Below are positions 2,968 through 61,961 of a stretch of 64,000 nt of DNA, one piece after another. Made by a program: the position numbers and the translations under genes. The notes under the pieces were generated by a model. The model was not told the DNA's origin, ran no database searches, and worked only from the letters and a program-made list of their open reading frames with translations. Origin of the DNA: Candidatus Algichlamydia australiensis (GTDB taxonomy: Bacteria; Chlamydiota; Chlamydiia; Chlamydiales; JAJFMI01); the NCBI GenBank assembly GCA_033977065.1, contig JAXCHI010000002.1:160001-224000 (forward strand), read 5' to 3'. Position 1 is the first letter of the stretch; each line of letters opens with the position of its first letter.

Positions 2968-5898
2968 CTATGCAATTTGGCAAGAGATGGTTTCTTGCAA
3001 TGAATGGGTAGGGATTTTTTCTTTTTCTAAAAGTTCTTTAGCAGCAAAGGTAGCATAAAGAGCACTCTCTTTTTTAGAGAGTAGATGCTCTTTGGCCACA
3101 CGCGCAACCTCTTCCGGCTTTGCCGATAGGATGCGATCGCGCCACTCTTGGCGTCGTTTTACTGTTTTTCCTTCACGGAGTGCAAAGTATTCTGCAGAGG
3201 CACGCGCGCTTGGGGAAATCGGCATATCCAAATTTTGCAATAAAAGTAGCTGCGCCTCTTCTAAATCAGCTGCGGTGAAGTTGCCACTGGCAACTTCTTC
3301 GATACCTTTATCAAATGCTTTGAGTGTGGATTGAATGTGCGGATCGCGTGAGCCGAGGCAGATAAAATGACCGGTTAAGGGATTGTAACCGGCACCAGAG
3401 CCGTAAGCACCACCCTGTTCGCGGATTGTTTTATGTAAGACTTTATTTTCCATCAGTTTTGGTACGAGTAGAAGAAGCGGTGCATCGGGATTTGTCGAGG
3501 TAATTGTGCGGAAACCCCAGCCGGTAAAGGCAACAGGGGATGCGATTGCTCTTCCTTGTGAGGTAATAGAGAGCAGCTCTTCGTTTGTTTTCCAGGGAGT
3601 AAAGGGTTTGGCTGAAATTTTGCTAAGATTAAAGAAATTTTCTTTTTTAAGTCTTTGGTAGTCTTCTTCATCGCAGCTAATGATGAGATTCGGTTGATGA
3701 AAATGGAGAATTTTTTCCTTTAACTCTACAAGTTTTGCTAGCAATTCATCCGCAAGTCGATCAAAGTTTGTGGCGAGATGTTCAATAAATTGGTAGTAGT
3801 GCAAGCCAAAGCTCTGCTCTTTAATACTTCCAGAAGGCGAGCAACCAGCAGTAGCAAGAGAGAGGGCATAACTCATTGGACTGCTTTGTACTTTGCTCTG
3901 GAGTCCGGTGTACATTTGTAGCACTAGCTCGCGAATACGCTCTTTTTCATCAAAGCGCACCTCTCTTGCTGTCTCAATCAGGGTTTGTAGCATCGCTCCT
4001 GCATTGCGAGAGAGGGCTTTAGAAGAGAGGGAGAATGAGGGGCGCATCTGATTAGGATCATCAAATTGTGTATTGAGGGAACTGGAGGCCCAAATGCCGC
4101 CTGTAATACTTTCAAGGTGCTGCAAGTTTTGCGCGAAATCGCGCTCTGCGCAGCCAAGTTCTGGAAGCAACTTGGTAAAAAGAGTGAAGTAGGGAAGCTC
4201 TTCTGCTTCAAGTGCAGGTGTGTCAAAAACAAGTTGAGCATAGACAAGGCCGTTAGTGAAGCAGTTGTGTGAAAAGACGGTTAGATGATCAAATTTTTCT
4301 TCGCGCAGTGGGAAGCTACGCGCTTTGGTATCCACATCTTCAAGACTCACTTTTGGCAAACAACTTAAGTCTTGACCCTCTTGTTTCTCTTGCAGCTCTT
4401 TTAAATCTTTTGCTTGGGCAATAATCTGTTTTTTTTGTTCATCTGTTAGCTGTTTTTCTATTTCCGTAAGCCGCTCTTTTTCTTCTTGGTCTTCACGCTC
4501 TCCACGTTTAGGATCGGGCTCCATTGTCAGGTTGACAAAATGCGGGTTATCAAGGAAATACTTTCTCAGCAGGTCTGTGAGGTAGTTTTGATCTTTTAGC
4601 TTCTCTTCGATCTGGTCAAAGAGCGCATGCAGTTGCAGTCCGCGCGCAGGATCGATGTTGTGCTGTTTTAGCAATCCAGAACGGAAGAAGAGTGTGAGAC
4701 CAAATGGTGTAGACCCACTTGTTGTTTCTAGTCGGTCGAGCTCGAGCTGGTGGAGGGAATTTTGAATAAGCTTTGGATCAATTCCCTCATTCGCAATCTC
4801 CTCTAAGCTCTCGCGTACAAGCTTTTCAATCGCCTCAGCACTCTCTTTTTTTGCTCCGCGACAAAAGATCAGATAGGGAATCTCATGCATATCTGTGTCC
4901 ATAAATCCATCAGCGTGTGTGCAGAGCCCTGATGCGAGCAGACGACGTTTGAGCGGCGATGCGTCCGTATCCATTAGTGTTGATTCTAGTAAACTTAAGC
5001 CCAGCAAATCCTCCTGATTTTGGATTGGTACTGTGAGCCAGCCAAGCGCCACAAACGATTTTCCCTCTAGTTCTGTGTCGCTTGTCGGGTAGGTATCACA
5101 AACGCGTTTGGGTGCCGTGAATCTTCTTTGAGAAGCGATTGGTGGGAGTGGTTGTTTGAGCTCCGCCTCATGTAAAACATTTTTCTCAATAAAATCGAGA
5201 TGCCCCTCTAAAGGCAAGTTGCCATAAAAATAGAAGAGACAGCGGCTAGGATGGTAAAACGTTTTATGAAAGCCGAGGAATTCCTCATAACTTAAGTTGG
5301 GAATATCGCGCGGATCGCCTCCCGAATTAAAGGCGTAAGGGGTGTCAGGTAATAGGAGTTCATTGATCTTATGCCAGGTGCGCATTTCAGGGGAAGCGAC
5401 TGAACCTTTCATCTCATTAAAAACAATTCCTTTGTAAATCAAATTCTCTGCTTCATCAAAGTCAAAGCGGTGTCCCTCCTGACGAAAGCTCAACTCGTTC
5501 AATTCAGGGTAGAAAACAGCATCCAAGTAGACGCCTAGCAAATTATAAAAGTCTTTCTTTACCTGCGTAGCACATGGATAGCAGGTCATATCTTGACCTG
5601 TTAACGCATTCATGTACGTATTGAGGCTGCGGCGATTCATAGAGAAGAAGGGATCCTTTACAGGATATTTTTTGGAGCCGCATAAAACTGTATGCTCAAG
5701 AATATGAGGCGCGCCATTGGAGCTCTCTGGCAATGTCTGAAACGAGAGACAAAAAACATTTTCCTTGTCGTCACAGGCAATGTGCATGACCTTGGCTCCG
5801 CTCGGCCTGTGGGTCAGTTCGATTAATGTCGCTTTTAGCTCTTCAATTGGCTCACTTCGCATGCAAACAAAATTGCCGTATTCTTGGTCTTTCTTCAT
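2968..5898 (-). CDS. M16C insulinase/presequence-protease-like metallopeptidase
   Basis: HILEHTVLCGS inverted zinc motif, REQGGAYG motif, 976 aa. Confidence 0.94.
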   Translation of the reverse strand: MKKDQEYGNFVCMRSEPIEELKATLIELTHRPSGAKVMHIACDDKENVFCLSFQTLPESSNGAPHILEHTVLCGSKKYPVKDPFFSMNRRSLNTYMNALTGQDMTCYPCATQVKKDFYNLLGVYLDAVFYPELNELSFRQEGHRFDFDEAENLIYKGIVFNEMKGSVASPEMRTWHKINELLLPDTPYAFNSGGDPRDIPNLSYEEFLGFHKTFYHPSRCLFYFYGNLPLEGHLDFIEKNVLHEAELKQPLPPIASQRRFTAPKRVCDTYPTSDTELEGKSFVALGWLTVPIQNQEDLLGLSLLESTLMDTDASPLKRRLLASGLCTHADGFMDTDMHEIPYLIFCRGAKKESAEAIEKLVRESLEEIANEGIDPKLIQNSLHQLELDRLETTSGSTPFGLTLFFRSGLLKQHNIDPARGLQLHALFDQIEEKLKDQNYLTDLLRKYFLDNPHFVNLTMEPDPKRGEREDQEEKERLTEIEKQLTDEQKKQIIAQAKDLKELQEKQEGQDLSCLPKVSLEDVDTKARSFPLREEKFDHLTVFSHNCFTNGLVYAQLVFDTPALEAEELPYFTLFTKLLPELGCAERDFAQNLQHLESITGGIWASSSLNTQFDDPNQMRPSFSLSSKALSRNAGAMLQTLIETAREVRFDEKERIRELVLQMYTGLQSKVQSSPMSYALSLATAGCSPSGSIKEQSFGLHYYQFIEHLATNFDRLADELLAKLVELKEKILHFHQPNLIISCDEEDYQRLKKENFFNLSKISAKPFTPWKTNEELLSITSQGRAIASPVAFTGWGFRTITSTNPDAPLLLLVPKLMENKVLHKTIREQGGAYGSGAGYNPLTGHFICLGSRDPHIQSTLKAFDKGIEEVASGNFTAADLEEAQLLLLQNLDMPISPSARASAEYFALREGKTVKRRQEWRDRILSAKPEEVARVAKEHLLSKKESALYATFAAKELLEKEKIPTHSLQETISCQIA

Positions 5899-5968: not shown

Positions 5969-5988
5969 TTTTCTGTTACAGAGTACTA
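5969..5988. repeat. Terminal remnant of fold-back family B
   Basis: ttttctgttacagagtacta matches the terminus of element 18563-18725 and shares its TA with element A1. Confidence 0.75.
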
Positions 5989-6149
5989 GATAGTGTCGTC
6001 AAAAGGCTATAATCAGATTATTTTTCATGTTTGCAGCTTATTTTTGTGCGGAAAATGAAGCTGAATTTGTAAATTCCGCTTCATTTGAGCACAAAAATGG
6101 AGCCCAAACATGAAAAATAAGATGGTTGTATGCTTTTGACGACGCTATC
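5989..6149. mobile_element. Fold-back MITE-like element, family A copy 1 (161 bp)
   Basis: GATAGTGTCGTCAAAAG...CTTTTGACGACGCTATC, palindromic over its whole length, TA on both sides; reverse complement of 36512-36672 with one difference seen. Confidence 0.92.
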
Positions 6150-6188
6150 TAGACAACTCGGTCAAAATAATCCAAAAGCTAGATGAAA

Positions 6189-6208
6189 GGCACCCCGAAA
6201 GGGGCGCC
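6189..6208 (-). terminator. Likely intrinsic terminator after nrdB
   Basis: ggcacccc-gaaa-ggggcgcc hairpin 11 nt past the nrdB stop, followed by a short U tract on the minus strand. Confidence 0.6.
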
Positions 6209-6219
6209 CATTGAAGAGA

Positions 6220-7260
6220 CTACCAAGTGAGGCTGGCAGAAGATTGGTACTCGTTGACGCGGGTTTCAAAGAAGTTCTTCTCTTTGCCCAGATCAATTGT
6301 TTCGCTCATCCAGGGGAAGGGGTTGCTCGATCCATAGAGCGCTTTGAGGCCGATACGCTCGAGGCGACGGTCAGCGATGTGCTGCACGTACTCGCGGAAC
6401 ATCGGAGCCGTGAGGCCGAGGATGCCTTTAGGAAGGCAGTCAACAGCGTACTGATACTCCAGTTCAACAGCCTCTTTGATCAGACCGATGATGTGCTGCT
6501 GGAACTCGGGGGTCCAGAGGTGGGGATTTTCCTCCTTGATTCCGTTAATCAAGTCGATGCCAAAGTTCAAATGGATGGTCTCATCGCGCAGAATGTATTG
6601 GAACTGCTCGCCGATTCCGGTCATTTTATTTTGGCGGTGTAGAGAGAGAATCATTGCAAAGCCGCTGTAGAAGAAGAGACCTTCCATAATGATATAATAG
6701 CCGATCAGGTTTTCTAAGAATTTTTGCGCACCTTCAGTTGTTTCAGTTGTGAAATTTTCGTTCAGCATATCTTCGGTAAGCTGCATCTCAAATTTATCTT
6801 TAGCTTGTATAGCAGGGATTTCGTTGTACATGTTGAAGATTTCACCTTGGTCAAGGTTAAGAGACTCAACTATGTAGTGGAAGGTGTGAGTGTGGATCGC
6901 TTCTTCAAACCCTTGGCGTAGGAGATATTGGCGCGCTTCGGGGTTAGTCAGATGTTTATAGATACCGAGAACAATGTTGTTGCCAACTAAGCTCTCTGCT
7001 GTGCTAAAGAAGCCGAGGTTGCGCATGATCAGCCGGCGCTCTGCTTCTGTAAGCTCATTAGACTTCCAAAGTTCGATGTCTTTTGCCATCGGTACTTCTG
7101 TTGGCATCCAGTGGTTAGCACAACCATTGAGATAGTGCTCCCATGCCCAACCATATTTGAGGGGCATCAGTTGGTTGACATCAACTTTGGTGCAGTTAAT
7201 CAGTTTTTTTTCATTTGCTTGGACGCGCTTATTTTCGCCGTCTTTAATATGTTCTTCCAT
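6220..7260 (-). CDS. nrdB: Ribonucleotide reductase beta subunit, class Ic (Mn/Fe) type
   Basis: EEAIHTHTF (Phe at the radical-Tyr position), STAESLV (Glu first ligand), [16 protein letters not shown]. Confidence 0.96.
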
Positions 7261-10969: not shown

Positions 10970-11133
10970 AGGAGATACTGAATAACTGCTCTTTTCGAGA
11001 AGAGATCAAAAAATGAGGACAAATTGGTTTTGGAGAACGGAGCTAACTCCAATATGAGTTAGTGAGTTTGAAAAACCGATTTGGACCAATTTTTGATCCC
11101 TTATCGAGAAGTCTGAGTTATTCAATGTTTCCC
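10970..11133. mobile_element. Fold-back element, family D copy 1 (164 bp), abutting C2 via a shared TA
   Basis: AGGAGATACTGAATAAC...GTTATTCAATGTTTCCC, TA-flanked, central ctaactc/gagttag; reverse-complement homolog at 52990-53152. Confidence 0.88.
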
Positions 11134-11152
11134 TAAGAGAAGGATTAAAGTC

Positions 11153-11977
11153 ATGCGACAAGTCTATCTTGTTCCGAATATCATCACAGCATTTGGGCTC
11201 TCATGCGGTCTTTACGTAATCTTTAAGGCTAACCTTATTGGAGAAGACATGGGCATATATGGTGTACTTTTATCCTCCTCTCTTCTTTTGATTCTCGCTT
11301 CGTTTGCAGACTTTCTTGATGGAGCAGTTGCGCGTGTACTGCATGCAGAAAGCGAATTTGGATTGATGTTTGACTCCCTTTCCGATGCGATCACTTTTGG
11401 AGTAGCACCTTCAGTCCTCCTTGTGAAAAGTCTTTCACCAGAACTTGGCACGCCCCTTTCTTTCTTTGTTGTGTTAGGGGCGATGCTCTTTTCTCTCTGC
11501 GGCGTTTTGCGTCTTGTTCGCTACAATGTAAAAGCGGCAGAGAAAAAGGAAAAACCTAAAGAAGAAAAACCGAGTTTTACTGGCTTGCCTATTCCCTCTG
11601 CAGCTCTCGCTGCTCTCTCAATCAATCTCTTTCTTAACTCTCCAAAAGGAGAGCTCTGGTTTCCGATGAGCATGATGACAAAATCGATCGTTCTCACTCT
11701 TTGCACACTCTTTGTCGGCTGTCTGATGGTTTCCAAAATCAAATTTCCTAGCCTCAAAGCACTGCACATCCGTGTCCCATCCGTACACCTCCTCTTTGCA
11801 ACTGTGATCTTTGCCATATTTTTGCTCTACGGCATTCTCTACCAATTTACTCTTGTCTTTACGATCCTTACTTGGGGTTATATCTTCACAGCCCTCGCTC
11901 TTCTCGTTACGCATTATATCGTCGGTAAGCGCACAAATGCCCTCAAAGCTTTCGATCCCGACGACGAAGAGGAATAA
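11153..11977 (+). CDS. pssA: CDP-diacylglycerol--serine O-phosphatidyltransferase
   Basis: DFLDGAVAR...SEFGLMFDSLSDAITFGVAP CDP-alcohol phosphotransferase motif; FTGLPIP. Confidence 0.93.
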   Translation: MRQVYLVPNIITAFGLSCGLYVIFKANLIGEDMGIYGVLLSSSLLLILASFADFLDGAVARVLHAESEFGLMFDSLSDAITFGVAPSVLLVKSLSPELGTPLSFFVVLGAMLFSLCGVLRLVRYNVKAAEKKEKPKEEKPSFTGLPIPSAALAALSINLFLNSPKGELWFPMSMMTKSIVLTLCTLFVGCLMVSKIKFPSLKALHIRVPSVHLLFATVIFAIFLLYGILYQFTLVFTILTWGYIFTALALLVTHYIVGKRTNALKAFDPDDEEE

Positions 11978-12026: not shown

Positions 12027-13157
12027 ATGAGTATTAAAGAATTTCCTTTAAATTTAGCGCTTCCTTCATTTGGACAAACGGCTTTCCTCTCCTGGGGGTT
12101 GTGTCAGCTTGGATTGAGTCATCTTCAATCTAGAAGTCCTTATATTCAAAATAAAATTGTAGACAGGCGTCACACACTTCATACTGTAAATTCTTTTATT
12201 AGCTATTCAACGCTCGCATTTTTTTCCTATCGAGTAGTGAATGTGATACAGTACGGCGAATCTTGGGGCGTCCTAGAACCAGTAAGAAAGCTATTCTGTG
12301 AATTCAGGAGCTCTCCATTTATTCAATCTTCTTATAAATCGACAGTAACACTCTCAGAAATGACTGAAAAAATCTGCAGGAATTATATTGGAAATGATTT
12401 AACTTTCTTTGCTGCTCTTATGCTAGGATCGTTTTTCTTTATGGCTGTTTCAGGAGTTATAATAACGGTTTCAATATTGGCAGTAACTCGTTTTCACACT
12501 GCATTGCAGGATATCTCTAAAAAAACGAATTCACGTTGCTTGCCTTCAGAGGGTTTTGAGGATGTAGAAGATAAGATAAGTGTGGAATGGATAAATTCCC
12601 CTTATCAAAATACGCTGCAGTTTGATCACTTGCTTTCTCTTGTTGCAACAGTTGCGTTTGCTGCTTTAGCCGAGCAAAAATGGGCATTTCTTGTATTAGT
12701 GGTAGCGCAGATTAGCGCGGTAGTTACTGTGGCAAAATGGAAAACATTAAAATTCTCTTCAAAAGAAATAGAGTTGGAGAAAGTGAATGAGGGGCCTCAA
12801 AAATGCAAATTTCACTATATTTTTCCGGTAATTGAGTCTGCATCAGCAGGTACATATTTTTGCACGAATCACGAATTTCCTTTAATTAAAATTGTAGAGT
12901 CAATTTGTCAACAGCTAAATAGAGCTAAAATTAAGATTAAAAATCGACATACAGACCATCATTGGGAATACAACAAATTTTTGTATGATCGTATTTCGTA
13001 CAAAGTGACCGTCGAAAACAAAAACCTTCCTAGATGTAAACATGAGTGCAAAGCGCCACCTCGAAATGTATTTAGTGTGCAATTTTTCGATCGCCATATA
13101 GATCAAAAAAGAAAAGTGTCAGAGGAGTGGATTCCGGCCCAAATCACAGTTGTATAG
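12027..13157 (+). CDS. Hypothetical AT-rich membrane protein, possible effector
   Basis: 376-aa ORF with hydrophobic segments and a Cys/His-containing C-terminus. Confidence 0.7.
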   Translation: MSIKEFPLNLALPSFGQTAFLSWGLCQLGLSHLQSRSPYIQNKIVDRRHTLHTVNSFISYSTLAFFSYRVVNVIQYGESWGVLEPVRKLFCEFRSSPFIQSSYKSTVTLSEMTEKICRNYIGNDLTFFAALMLGSFFFMAVSGVIITVSILAVTRFHTALQDISKKTNSRCLPSEGFEDVEDKISVEWINSPYQNTLQFDHLLSLVATVAFAALAEQKWAFLVLVVAQISAVVTVAKWKTLKFSSKEIELEKVNEGPQKCKFHYIFPVIESASAGTYFCTNHEFPLIKIVESICQQLNRAKIKIKNRHTDHHWEYNKFLYDRISYKVTVENKNLPRCKHECKAPPRNVFSVQFFDRHIDQKRKVSEEWIPAQITVV

Positions 13158-13236: not shown

Positions 13237-13353
13237 ACTATTCTCACTTGGGGCTACATCTTCACAGCACTCTGCCTCCTCATCACACATTACATTGTGG
13301 GCAAACGCACCGATGCCCTCAAAGCTTTTGATCCTGACGACGAAGAGGAATAG
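13237..13353 (+). pseudogene. Orphan duplicate of the last 38 codons plus stop of pssA
   Basis: Translates TILTWGYIFTALCLLITHYIVGKRTDALKAFDPDDEEE*, matching 11861-11977. Confidence 0.93.
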
Positions 13354-35096: not shown

Positions 35097-36281
35097 ATGA
35101 AGTTCAAAATCGTACTTTTTTTGATGTTTAGATCACTTTTTGCAGAGCAGTCTCTTCTTCTTCTAAATGATACGTCTGAGTGCTATCACTGGGGCTGTAC
35201 AGGAACATCTCAGGCAATGAGAGAGGAGATCCAAGAAATAGGATACGCGCTTGAATCCATTTCTATTCTTGATCTACGCAATTTAGAAGGGGTTCCTTCC
35301 TCTTTTTCTCTCTTTGATGAGAAAGAAAAATTTCAGCTTTTTAAGCAAAGTAATCCCTCTCTATGCGAGCGATTAAAAAAGTCAGACATAGTAGTCATTA
35401 ACGGAGAAGGTTCCATCCATATGATGCGCCCACTTCCTCGCGCTCTTCTCTACGTTGCCTACATCTCCAAAAAGTTTTTTGGTAAACATACCGAAATTAT
35501 TAACCACTCCTGCTTTCCAGAGGATTGTTTAAAAGTAGATGACGAAGAGACAAGAGATCTCTATGCAGGTGTATATAAAACTGTAGATTATGTTTGTGTG
35601 CGAGAACCTTTGAGTCGGACTGTCTTAAATTCTCTTGGTGTAGAGAAGGTTGATGAAAGTTTTGACTCGCTGCCTCTCTATATCAGAAAACACTATACAG
35701 TCCCACAAAAGGCAGCAAGCAACACGATCGTACTCGCGGGATCTGTTGATTGGAAAGAAGAGGGGATGAAGATCGTTGTCCAAGAGTTAAAAAAATTAGA
35801 AGAGCAAGGCTACAAAATTCAAGTTTTAGTAGGAGCAAAAGATCGTCCTGCCTATGACGACAAGTTGTTTGTTGAATTTTTAAGCGATGAGCTAAAAAGT
35901 GGATGGGAGCTCATCGATGCTAAATCACTTGATGAATGGCTCGGTGCAATTGCAAATGCGGATTTACTTGTCTCAGGCCGCTTTCATCACACGATCGCTG
36001 CAATCTGTTTAAAAACACCTTTTGTGGTTCTCAACTCCAATACACCAAAAATTGAAGGCATGCTCTCTATTATGCCAAATCGACATGTAGAGGTGTTGCA
36101 GTACCTAGATCCTGATCTTGAAACAAAAATTCAGAATAGTATCGATGCAGCATTTCAGATGTCAGAAGAGACTTTTCCAACCTTGGAAATCATTTGTGAA
36201 AAAGCCCAAAAAAAGTTTTCAAATTTGCAGTCTTACGAAAAATGTGGTTGGCAGAAGCAAAAGCACTTTCAGTCGGATTAG
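35097..36281 (+). CDS. Polysaccharide pyruvyl transferase family protein
   Basis: NGEGSIH, VREPLS, SGRFHHTIAA. Confidence 0.8.
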   Translation: MKFKIVLFLMFRSLFAEQSLLLLNDTSECYHWGCTGTSQAMREEIQEIGYALESISILDLRNLEGVPSSFSLFDEKEKFQLFKQSNPSLCERLKKSDIVVINGEGSIHMMRPLPRALLYVAYISKKFFGKHTEIINHSCFPEDCLKVDDEETRDLYAGVYKTVDYVCVREPLSRTVLNSLGVEKVDESFDSLPLYIRKHYTVPQKAASNTIVLAGSVDWKEEGMKIVVQELKKLEEQGYKIQVLVGAKDRPAYDDKLFVEFLSDELKSGWELIDAKSLDEWLGAIANADLLVSGRFHHTIAAICLKTPFVVLNSNTPKIEGMLSIMPNRHVEVLQYLDPDLETKIQNSIDAAFQMSEETFPTLEIICEKAQKKFSNLQSYEKCGWQKQKHFQSD

Positions 36282-36707
36282 GAAGCAGGGGAATCTCAGT
36301 AAATACGGTAAGTTTAGGCGGGGTGTGGACAGAGAAGCTTGCAGAAAAGATGGAAAAAGAGTCGCAAGACTCTGGAGAATCTGTAGAAAAGCTGCGCGTA
36401 AATCGCGTGCAAAATATTCCTCTAAAAAAATATGCCGAGCTATCTGAAGTGGCAAGTGTTGTAGAGCAAATGTTAGGGGATTTGACAAGCCATCTTACTA
36501 GGCAAAATTTAGATAGCGTCGTCAAAAGCATACAACCATCTTATTTTTCATGTTTGGGCTCCATTTTTGTGCTCAAATGAAGCGGAATTTACAAATTCAG
36601 CTTCAATTTCCGCACAAAAATAAGCTGCAAACATGAAAAATAATCTGATTATAGCCTTTTGACGACACTATCTAGTTCTAGATGGAGGGTTTACCTCAGC
36701 TTATTAG
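36242..36707 (+). pseudogene. SDR oxidoreductase C-terminal fragment interrupted by element A2
   Basis: RGISVNTVSLG...IPLKK...HLTRQNL, then element, then VLDGGFTSAY*. Confidence 0.85.
36512..36672. mobile_element. Fold-back element, family A copy 2 (161 bp) with TA duplication
   Basis: Removing the element and one TA restores caa aat tta gtt cta gat gga (QNLVLDG). Confidence 0.93.
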
Positions 36708-36796: not shown

Positions 36797-36900
36797 TAAG
36801 AGAAATAGGGGAGTAACTTAGGTATTTGCCTCAAGTAAACTTCCTTGCAGTAAACTCTTTATTGCTACATCATTCAATTTGAATTTTGTCGGAGGTTCCC

Positions 36901-44270: not shown

Positions 44271-45563
44271 TTAATTTACAAGTTCTAGATATTTGATTCG
44301 TTTTTGGAATATTTTTTTGGTATGACTTGTTTGGCAGTAATCGACTGGTTGTTTGCCACTTTTGTCTTTTGCCGTTAGATCTTCTAAGTCACCAGTTAAA
44401 AGTAAAACTTTTTCGATATAACTTGAATTATCAGAAGGGCCTTTTTTTCGCATAGCGACATAGTGAAAAATCGATTGACCAGATTTAGTTTTAATTTTAA
44501 CAAGGCTAGTAGATTTCTTAAGAAGAGTTTCAACCAATTTCAGTGTGCAGTATTTTACAGCTAGATGTAACGCTGTTTCACCCTTGTTATTTTGGATATT
44601 TAATAGGGGATCAGTGGCTAGTAATAGTTTGCACAATGTAGTCATGCCGCCGAAGGTTGCTCTATGAAGGGGTGTATTTCCAGTTTTTGGGTCTTGACTA
44701 TTTGGGTTCGCGCCTTTTTTAAGCAAGTACTTTACCCCTTCTTGCCATCTAGCAGTTACAGCCTTTCCTAAAAGCTCGTCTAAAGTTTTTTCTTTGTGGG
44801 ATTCGTTTGTTCGTTCAATGTAGTCTTTAAGTTTTGAGATGTTTTTTTCGCTTACATTGAAAGTTTGTTTTTTTGAGGCGTAGTCAGCGGGCAGCTTGCC
44901 TGATTTGTCTCTAACAAGAACAGAGTAAGGATTCATTTTTATAATTTTTTTTACGACTGTTAGTGATCCATAAACTGCGGCAAGGTGTAGTGCTGATTTT
45001 CCTTCGAGATTTACAGGTAAAGAGAGTGATGCATTCTTCTCTATTAATAGAAAAAACATCTCTTTATACGTAGCAAATTTTGAGCAATTGATAGCTGAAG
45101 AACCTGTCTCCTTGTCAATCCAGTTAGGATCAGCTCCATTTTCTAACAATAGTTTTGCGCCTTTCTTCCAATTTTCTTTAATTGCGCTATGTAGTGCAAT
45201 TCCTAGGTAATTGCTACTCTTTGCCAATTCATTAATTTTGGTGGCTAATAGTTCGCTATCTTTAGCGCAAATAGCTCTATAAACTTCAGGAAAAGGTTCT
45301 TTTAATTTTTTCGAATATTGTGAACTGACTTTTCTAGATTTAGAGGGAGGGCGATCTTCATCTTCTGAAGGCTTAGGACAAATTAAATTTTGAATTTCAG
45401 AAGGATCAAGGCTAAAAAATGGATTATCTAAAATATCATCTGAAATTCTTTCTGAAAATGTTCTTGTTCCCAGAATAGATGGGGGTGGAAGTTCTTCTTG
45501 GAGATCGAACTCGATTGGTTTAAAAGGTTCATGTGCAATTGAACCAATGGGTGTAATATTCAT
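44271..45563 (-). CDS. Ankyrin-repeat protein, paralog 1
   Basis: GKSALHLAA, GNTPLHRA, GETALHLAV; disordered Ser/Pro/acidic N-terminus. Confidence 0.92.
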   Translation of the reverse strand: MNITPIGSIAHEPFKPIEFDLQEELPPPSILGTRTFSERISDDILDNPFFSLDPSEIQNLICPKPSEDEDRPPSKSRKVSSQYSKKLKEPFPEVYRAICAKDSELLATKINELAKSSNYLGIALHSAIKENWKKGAKLLLENGADPNWIDKETGSSAINCSKFATYKEMFFLLIEKNASLSLPVNLEGKSALHLAAVYGSLTVVKKIIKMNPYSVLVRDKSGKLPADYASKKQTFNVSEKNISKLKDYIERTNESHKEKTLDELLGKAVTARWQEGVKYLLKKGANPNSQDPKTGNTPLHRATFGGMTTLCKLLLATDPLLNIQNNKGETALHLAVKYCTLKLVETLLKKSTSLVKIKTKSGQSIFHYVAMRKKGPSDNSSYIEKVLLLTGDLEDLTAKDKSGKQPVDYCQTSHTKKIFQKRIKYLELVN

Positions 45564-45660
45564 GTCATTTATTATATAATCAAATAACAATAAAAGCAAT
45601 TAAATTTTTAATTATTTAATTTTTTATAAATAAATGTAAAAATTATTTTTTGAAAAATTA

Positions 45661-45727
45661 CCACTCTCAAAATCGTTTTTTACAGACAAAAACGCCGCAG
45701 AGCCACTCATCTTTTTTTGCTTGCTCT
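45661..45727. repeat. Left part of family F plus flank
   Basis: ttttacagacaaaaacgccgcagagccactcatcttttt near-identical to 46819-46857. Confidence 0.85.
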
Positions 45728-45880
45728 AGCTCTCTCTATCAGCAAAGACAATCATTCCTTCAGACATGAAGTCGGCAAGTTTAGGATGGAAGGGATCTAG
45801 CTGCTTCCTAAATTCAGGATGTTCTCACCTATTTGAAATTTTTTAAATCTGTATTTGATGAAACAAGGCCTAGTACTCTT

Positions 45881-46558
45881 TCACCTTTGTTTCTTCGAAA
45901 CATAGTCAACGGGTAGCTTACCGTATATGTCTCTCTCAAAGAGGGACAAAGGAGCTTTTTCTATAATTTTTTTAACGACTTCATGTGAGTTAGAGGCTGC
46001 TGCAAGGTGTAGTGCTGATTGTTTTTGGCGATTTAGGGGTAAAAAGAGGGATGCATTCCACTTTAGTAATAGAAAAAACATTTCTTTATGTGTAGCAAAT
46101 TTTGAGCAATTGATAGCTGAAGAGCCTGTCTCCGGATCTCTCCAGTTAGGATCAGCTCCCTTTTTTAACAGCAGTGCTGTGCCGCTCTTCCAATTTTTTT
46201 TAATTGCAGAATGCAGTGCAACTTCTAGGTAGTTACTATTATTTACTAATTCATCAATTCCGGTGGCTAATAGTTTGACATTTTTAGTGCAAATAGCTCT
46301 ATAAACTCTAGGAGCAGGTTTTTGTAATTTTTTCCAATATTGTGAATTGGTTTTTCTAGATTTGGAGGGAGGGCTATTTTCGTCTTCTGAAAGTATAAGA
46401 TAAGTTAAATCTTCAATCTCAGAAGAATCAAAGTTAGAAAGTAGACTATCTACAGTTCTTTGTGAAAATGTTCTTGACCCTAGAATAGATTGGGGCGAGG
46501 CTCCTCCTTGGAGATCGGGCCTTATTGTTTTAAGGGAATTAGTTGGCAAAATATTCAT
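45881..46558 (-). CDS. Ankyrin-repeat protein, paralog 2 (C-terminally truncated, possibly a pseudogene)
   Basis: Colinear with the N-half of paralog 1 (ETGSSAINCSKFAT identical); stops at YVSKKQR. Confidence 0.8.
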   Translation of the reverse strand: MNILPTNSLKTIRPDLQGGASPQSILGSRTFSQRTVDSLLSNFDSSEIEDLTYLILSEDENSPPSKSRKTNSQYWKKLQKPAPRVYRAICTKNVKLLATGIDELVNNSNYLEVALHSAIKKNWKSGTALLLKKGADPNWRDPETGSSAINCSKFATHKEMFFLLLKWNASLFLPLNRQKQSALHLAAASNSHEVVKKIIEKAPLSLFERDIYGKLPVDYVSKKQR

Positions 46559-46815
46559 GTCATTTATTGTATCATTAAATAATAATAAAATCAATCAAAT
46601 GGTGTTAATGTTTTAATTTTCGGTGTTTTTAATAAAAAAAATATTTAAAAAATTTTTTTAAAATTAAAAATTCATAGGGTTGCTCATTTTTTTTGACTAA
46701 TGTTCCTTGTCAAACCTCAAAAGATTTGAATTTGTCGCATTAGCAATAAAACTTAAGCATCTGTGCGGGCTTTTATTATGTAAAATAATTTTTGGAGGTT
46801 CCCACCCCCAAAGAC

Positions 46816-46947
46816 AAATTTTACAGACAAAAACGCCGCACAGCCACTCATCTTTTTCCGCTCGCTCCTTGGTAAACCCTCGGGTTTACCTGCGTCGCGA
46901 TCGAAAAAATCTAAGCACCTGTGCGGCGTTTTTGTAATGTAAAATTT
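46816..46947. repeat. Fold-back element, family F (132 bp), just downstream of tmRNA
   Basis: aaattttacagacaaaaacgccgcacag...ctgtgcggcgtttttgtaatgtaaaattt, central ggtaaacc/ggtttacc. Confidence 0.85.
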
Positions 46948-52947: not shown

Positions 52948-52989
52948 GGCTGCATGTTAGAGTCTTATAAAGGTGTTGTCAAGTGCTTA

Positions 52990-53152
52990 TGGACATACTG
53001 AATAATTTAGACTTTTCGATAAGGGACCAAAAATTGGTCCAAATCGGTTTTTCTAACTCACTAACTCTTATGGAGTTAGCTTCGTTCTCCAAAACCAATT
53101 TGTTCTCATTTTTTCATCTTTTCTCGAAAAGAGCAGTTATTCAGATGTTTTT
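52990..53152. mobile_element. Fold-back element, family D copy 2 (163 bp)
   Basis: Reverse-complement homolog of 10970-11133; TA at 52988-89 and 53153-54, the latter inside the upstream gene's stop codon. Confidence 0.88.

Positions 53153-60294: not shown

Positions 60295-61961
<1,667 letters not shown>

Follow-up and report, generated by a model that had tools for sequence, protein, structure and literature searches.

A candidate MITE family with probable TA target-site duplications, one copy of which interrupts an SDR pseudogene remnant, in an environmental chlamydia

Chlamydiae possess repeat-poor genomes. Expansions of insertion sequences are known in the phylum and have lately been proposed as a route of genome reduction (excerpts of PMC9723776), and the genome description of Waddlia mentions repeats of more than 200 bp and transposases only (PMC2878342). 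No description of MITEs or palindromic repeats in Chlamydiae was found in the titles and abstracts of the open-access literature. Bacterial MITEs are described as AT-rich elements of less than 200 bp that possess terminal inverted repeats (TIRs), 5'-TA-3' termini and a target-site duplication (TSD), and that form long stem-loops (excerpts of PMC2229807). The RUP element of S. pneumoniae is a MITE of this kind: it is small (107 bp) and non-coding, with stops in all frames, TIRs and insertion at TA. It occurs in approximately 108 copies, whose high identity to one another has been taken as a sign of recent mobility, and there is a candidate parent with matching TIRs, IS630-Spn1, to which its mobilisation is attributed on the basis of the TA duplication (same excerpts). 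The Correia or NEMIS elements of Neisseria measure 107–155 bp; their TIRs span about 24 bp, TA forms the termini, a TSD is present, and the transcripts fold into long stem-loops. The Rickettsia palindromic elements (RPE) are palindromes of 105–146 bp found inside the genes of an obligate intracellular host (both in the excerpts of PMC2229807). Among insertion sequences, members of the IS630/Tc1-mariner family such as ISY100 integrate almost exclusively at TA, which becomes duplicated, and short TIRs are all they require in cis (excerpts of PMC2170065). For the IS427 group of the IS5 family, direct repeats of 2 bp are given in all four rows among those listed in Table 2 of PMC3281130.

The DNA analysed here, referred to as the window, is a stretch of 64 kb (64,000 nucleotides), in which two copies (A1 and A2) of a short repeat, family A, were identified. 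The features of the two loci are as follows:

5987–5988, no strand: TA beside A1, on its right side in element orientation
5989–6149, minus strand: copy A1 of family A, in the intergenic region bounded by the nrdB stop at 6220 and the start of an M16C/PreP-like peptidase gene at 5898
6150–6151, no strand: TA beside A1, on its left side in element orientation
35097–36281, plus strand: pyruvyl-transferase-like ORF (Pfam PS_pyruv_trans), of which the last 16 or so codons are out-of-frame SDR remnant
36221–36511, plus strand: SDR pseudogene remnant upstream of A2, homologous to residues 143–239 of P0001 (tblastn, 85.6% identity, E 4e-51)
36510–36511, no strand: left TA of the putative target-site duplication at A2
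36512–36672, plus strand: copy A2 of family A, a non-coding MITE-like element of 161 bp, GATAG...CTATC
36512–36528, plus strand: left TIR (17 bp) of A2
36656–36672, minus strand: right TIR (17 bp) of A2
36673–36674, no strand: right TA of the putative target-site duplication at A2
36675–36707, plus strand: SDR remnant downstream of A2, the last 10 codons and the stop

Pairwise alignment and blastn showed A1 and A2 to be identical at 160 of 161 positions (99.4%), the sole difference being at 36606, where A2 possesses an A and A1 a T (at about position 6055 of the window). An initial annotation of this DNA had proposed that the copies differ at one visible base (ggaaaatg vs ggaaattg) and lie 30 kb apart in opposite orientation; the alignment agrees on that base, and the copies are indeed mutually inverted (minus strand for A1, plus strand for A2) at a spacing of 30.4 kb. 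A repeat finder run on the window reported the same pair as an inverted repeat of 170 nt with 99% identity (5982–6151 and 36510–36679). The first 29 nt of the element end have exactly two occurrences in the window, on the plus strand at 36512 and on the minus strand at 6149, and none of 100 dinucleotide shuffles gave two or more matches to this 29-mer. The likeness of the copies ends within a few bases, with TA before and TAGT after both, followed by unrelated flanks. A loose search of the window revealed no further copy, solo TIR or degraded copy.

The element is 161 bp in length with a GC content of 35%, as against 42% for the window. Its tips (GATAGCGTCGTCAAAAG vs GATAGTGTCGTCAAAAG) form an inverted match at 16 of 17 positions, and conserved blocks continue beyond them, such that 31 of the first 40 nt match between the ends; overall, the element consists of two arms of 69 nt each with 78% complementarity. 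When folded as RNA, the element is predicted to form a hairpin over its whole length (-70.4 kcal/mol, z -12.8), a stability reached by none of 200 shuffles, and the fold as DNA is likewise stable (-48 kcal/mol, z -12.6). There is no coding capacity: each of the six frames is broken by stops, and no open run exceeds 39 codons.

A1 is intergenic, lying 70 nt past the nrdB stop and 90 nt ahead of the peptidase start. The window is chlamydial in its gene content: a CT021-family protein is encoded in it, and Pfam domains identify the gene order htrA, M16 peptidase, nrdB, nrdA and CDP-alcohol phosphatidyltransferase, an order also found in Chlamydia. On the minus strand at 6182–6209, 11 nt after the nrdB stop, there is a GC-rich stem of 8 bp with a loop of 4 nt, followed by TTTCATCT. 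This structure (TTTC after the stem) was seen by eye and was not called by the terminator scanner; it is likely the nrdAB terminator, with A1 approximately 30 nt downstream. If co-transcribed, the A1 hairpin could conceivably affect mRNA stability or read-through.

For A2, the surrounding reading frame permits reconstruction of the empty site. The frame entering the element reads ...LGDLTSHLTRQNL (ending HLTRQNL) up to position 36511 and then continues through 22 element codons to a stop, while from 36675 the same frame reads VLDGGFTSAY followed by a stop. Scripted deletion of 163 bp, that is, the element and one TA, rejoined ...TRQNL and VLDGGFTSAY with its stop in frame, whereas deletion of 161 bp gave an immediate stop and deletion of 165 bp a frameshift. 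The reconstructed C-terminus was compared with four SDR homologues (P0001–P0004; full-length, 248–266 aa, obtained by a search with the pre-insertion part, P0001 being 86% identical), and it aligns with all four with no gap at the junction and with the same final Tyr. The result strongly supports an insertion accompanied by a short duplication, and it bears out two points of the initial annotation, namely that A2 interrupts an SDR reading frame with duplication of its target and that the rejoined tail would align with SDR homologues across the junction. The annotation had also regarded the excision as fixing the ends GATAG...CTATC and a duplicated TA. This is the most parsimonious register; the excision does not by itself fix it, as a deletion of 163 bp fits a duplication of TA, TAG or an imperfect T/CTAG (YTAG) alike, and the ends are to that extent not strictly determined. 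The TA register is kept here because no other is at once symmetric and free of mismatches at A1 and at A2. TA is present on both sides of both window copies, which fits the TA target of IS630-type elements and the 2-bp duplication of the IS427 group alike.

The target of A2 was found to be less than a complete gene. The claim of insertion into an SDR gene stands insofar as an SDR frame is interrupted, but this frame is not that of an intact gene: only a 3' remnant of about 107 of 249 codons (residues 143–249 of P0001) is present, and Pfam adh_short_C2 is matched over positions 154–229 of 236 only. The first 142 SDR codons have no tblastn match anywhere in the 64-kb window. Upstream, alignment of the pyruvyl-transferase ORF with four homologues showed that similarity stops after ...KKFSNLQ, placing the junction at approximately 36221. 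In a relative, a pyruvyl transferase (P0006) and an SDR (P0002) are both encoded on contigs of 31,074 bp, which suggests that the two genes adjoin when intact. It follows that a deletion of roughly 0.5 kb took out the pyruvyl-transferase end, the sequence between the genes and SDR codons 1–142, and fused both genes. The SDR gene hit by A2 is now, and perhaps was already at the time of insertion, a 5'-deleted pseudogene. A2 likely has no functional cost, since the SDR gene is dead already. Downstream, A2 lies 214 bp upstream of the gene of a GH64-like secreted protein, which starts at 36886.

When the element read-through was used as a protein query, two matches were obtained: the window's own 110-aa ORF (P0125), and P0126, a protein of 181 aa named hypothetical protein by NCBI in the Candidatus Algichlamydia australiensis MAG. 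The last 23 residues of P0126 consist of a Leu and 22 element-encoded residues, all of them identical, and a HMMER scan of 1.84 billion representatives with the element-encoded tail returned only P0126 (E 3e-5). Residues 1–158 of this protein have no counterpart in the window and no Pfam domain. P0126 therefore marks a third insertion site, outside the window, in a related or identical organism and with the same orientation and frame class; the Leu before its element tail fits a codon of the form xTA, though it is not proof of TA. A protein-tail search greatly undercounts copies, because only one of six orientation and frame combinations gives a searchable tail. An exact TIR pattern with two conserved inner bases was found at only two loci among 185,579 species genomes. 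These were rejected as family A copies and attributed to chance, since they comprise 17–18 nt of a single end and lie in Bacteroidales and Desulfobulbaceae MAGs. No match was obtained by blastn of the element against plasmid and phage collections. For annotation, the 110-aa 'SDR' ORF P0125 is to be read as a pseudogene fragment with an element-encoded tail, and the C-terminus of P0126 as likewise element-encoded.

Taken together, family A is a typical bacterial MITE in every tested respect, with two copies in the window and one further copy detected through P0126 dispersed in unrelated contexts. It is very probably a MITE of low copy number that is mobilised in trans by a TA-duplicating DDE transposase. 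Such a transposase, encoded elsewhere in the genome, would bind both inverted repeats and excise or copy the element, which would then integrate at a TA dinucleotide that becomes duplicated on either side. A1 would have landed in the nrdB–peptidase spacer, just downstream of the GC-rich terminator-like hairpin, and A2 ten codons before the SDR stop.

Compared by description with the systems outlined above, family A resembles RUP in its small size, non-coding nature, TIRs and insertion at TA, and differs in having three known copies in another phylum. It shares with the Correia elements the length class, TIRs, TA termini with TSD and a stem-loop fold; Correia elements, in contrast, possess an IHF site and promoter or RNase III functions and are restricted to Neisseria; no such motif was found in family A. 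As with RPE, the element is a palindrome of an intracellular bacterium that is found inside a gene; unlike RPE, which are in frame and co-translated, it adds 163 bp (not a multiple of three) and introduces a stop after 22 codons. Several other classes of small repeat were considered and rejected. REP and REPIN sequences are palindromes of 20–40 bp with a GTAG or CGTC tag at one end and no TSD, associated with a RAYT (PMC3733652), as opposed to a unit of 161 bp with TSD; the CGTC of family A sits 5 nt inside the end rather than at it, and no Y1 transposase was found in the window. An integron attC site was dismissed, as there is no integrase and there are no core sites, and so was a PATE of IS200/IS605, such elements being without TIRs and TSD. 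Family A is an ordinary kind of mobile DNA, one that apparently has not been described so far in this bacterial group.

The class of the transposase could be IS630/Tc1-mariner-like or that of the IS427 group of the IS5 family. The two were left even, as the TA duplication alone would point to IS630 and the gene inventory of the organism with P0126 to IS5/IS427. This inventory comes from excerpts of PMC11317633, in which the organism of P0126 is described as a Simkaniaceae symbiont of the dinoflagellate Cladocopium with a MAG of 1.80 Mb in seven contigs, 42.1% GC and '11 transposases'. The excerpted Table S8 of that paper contains no occurrence of IS630, DDE_3, HTH_Tnp or mariner (the MAG is 91.7% complete, and absence is not final), and no IS630-type transposase was found among the 53 window ORFs either. 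IS5-family entries in the same excerpts include one DUF772 ORF, and a DUF4096 ORF of 240 bp stands beside a DDE_Tnp_1_2 ORF of 324 bp, both of them fragments; the table further contains two transposases of the Mutator family and four Rpn/PDDEXK_2 proteins. The IS5/IS427-type candidate parent thus looks degraded in this MAG. Family A, whose end reads GATAGYGTCGTCAAAAG, is likened to the IS427 group by the size of its duplication. The ends of IS5-family elements typically begin with GA or GG, and the GA at the start of family A agrees with this.

The same kind of element could also be read in another register, as a unit of 159 bp (ATAG...CTAT) with a 4-bp YTAG duplication in the style of the IS5 group. 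CTAG is perfect on both sides of A1, the TIRs remain symmetric, and the annotation of the relative with the third copy includes genes for IS5-family transposases. A2 reads TTAG on the left and CTAG on the right, and the SDR peptide cannot tell the CTAG from the TA register because TTA and CTA both encode Leu, excision of 163 bp yielding an identical peptide whichever copy of the duplication stays. The mismatch at A2 would however require a mutation after insertion, yet the copies differ at only one of 161 positions, while under the TA register the C before the left TA of A1 is a coincidence of only one in four; the 4-bp reading is for these reasons unlikely. Hardly any credence can be given to the idea that the assembler created one of the copies by collapsing a repeat or pasting it in. 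Each copy has a unique, coherent gene context, TA flanks of its own and a private base at one position, the location of A2 exactly restores the SDR frame, and the same sequence recurs at a third site in an independent record, P0126. It is conceivable that family A is first and foremost an RNA or DNA hairpin with a function of its own (a terminator, mRNA stabiliser or sRNA precursor) that was duplicated by means other than transposition. The very stable fold, the location of A1 between co-directional nrdB and peptidase genes and the same orientation of both window copies relative to local transcription would suit such a role; the shared orientation of two copies, though, is a one-in-two event. 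The precise boundaries with a duplicated TA and the breakage of a reading frame by one insertion argue against it, as does the Rfam search, in which nothing exceeded the threshold at E-values up to 10 (best 35.1 bits vs a gathering score of 83). The sub-threshold Rfam matches are plant and animal miRNA hairpins, with the best from a plant, reflecting a generic long hairpin, and scans found no promoter-like or terminator-like site within A1 or A2. A primarily functional hairpin is consequently considered very improbable, although the two models are compatible, since a MITE can acquire such a role.

More weight attaches to the age of the family. Family A may be a fossil MITE, its parent transposase lost or degraded and its copies alike through gene conversion or short-read polishing, and this is a tenable reading although we lean against it. 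A scan of 53 window ORFs turned up no transposase domain, the only IS5/IS427-type ORFs of the relative (DUF4096 and DDE_Tnp_1_2) are the 240-bp and 324-bp fragments, the copy number is apparently low, and the homopolymer frameshift in pyrG (see below) hints at possible small assembly errors. Against this stand both intact TSDs and the 99.4% identity of the copies, compared with 90.6% for family B (a second repeat of the window, see below) and with arms that are 78% complementary. The interrupted SDR remnant, moreover, is still an open frame with 86% identity to its homologue, and gene conversion of a 161-bp tract across a distance of 30 kb, though possible, need not be invoked.

On the MITE reading, the intact TA flanks, the identical 23-residue tail of the third copy and the open, conserved SDR remnant all point to recency, and the three family A copies likely share a recent common origin, as far as their sequences can tell. 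The initial annotation had concluded that the family moved recently and is probably still mobile. Recent movement is plausible in relative terms, given the identity values for family A, family B and the arms cited above, but not as it was worded, and continued mobility is a possibility placed somewhat short of even. A bolder proposal is that this is the first MITE family documented in Chlamydiota, recently active in a Simkaniaceae lineage without an intact cognate transposase and cross-mobilised either by an IS transposase that is unrelated or borne on a plasmid, or by an enzyme of the Tc1/mariner type that the eukaryotic host supplies within its cell; in its entirety this is speculative and improbable. 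In an environmental chlamydia, a near-identical MITE family with intact target duplications marks a transposase as recently active, and filled and empty sites offer simple PCR- or read-level markers for strain typing. The inverted pair A1/A2, 30 kb apart, also provides potential substrates for inversion.

A number of other repeats and frame disruptions were identified in the window. Family B is a second MITE-like repeat of approximately 160 bp, present at 10978–11137 and 52986–53144 as an inverted pair 42 kb apart. Its copies are 90.6% identical (14 mismatches and one gap), with ends CTGAATAACTG.../...AGTTATTCA, and it is unrelated to family A; the flanks of copy B1 contain a direct repeat of 11 nt, GTTTCCCTAAG, which starts a few bases beyond the obvious ends. 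The CTP synthase gene (pyrG) on the minus strand is split into an N-terminal ORF of 349 aa (60867–61916) and a GATase ORF of 157 aa (60295–60768). The break (60768–60900) is a frameshift at a T-run just before the conserved VPGGFG motif, and it means either that pyrG is truly a pseudogene or that the homopolymer was misread in sequencing. At 44271–46867, ankyrin-repeat genes (442 aa and 237 aa) occur as a tandem duplicate, and the locus contains several families of direct repeats at a spacing of about 1 kb with identities of 76–88%. A direct repeat of 116 nt (81% identical), at 11861–11976 and 13237–13352, brackets an ORF of 376 aa with no Pfam domain (12027–13157). The CDP-alcohol phosphatidyltransferase gene has the first copy of this repeat as its 3' end, and the pair may have been left behind when a gene was inserted or partly duplicated.
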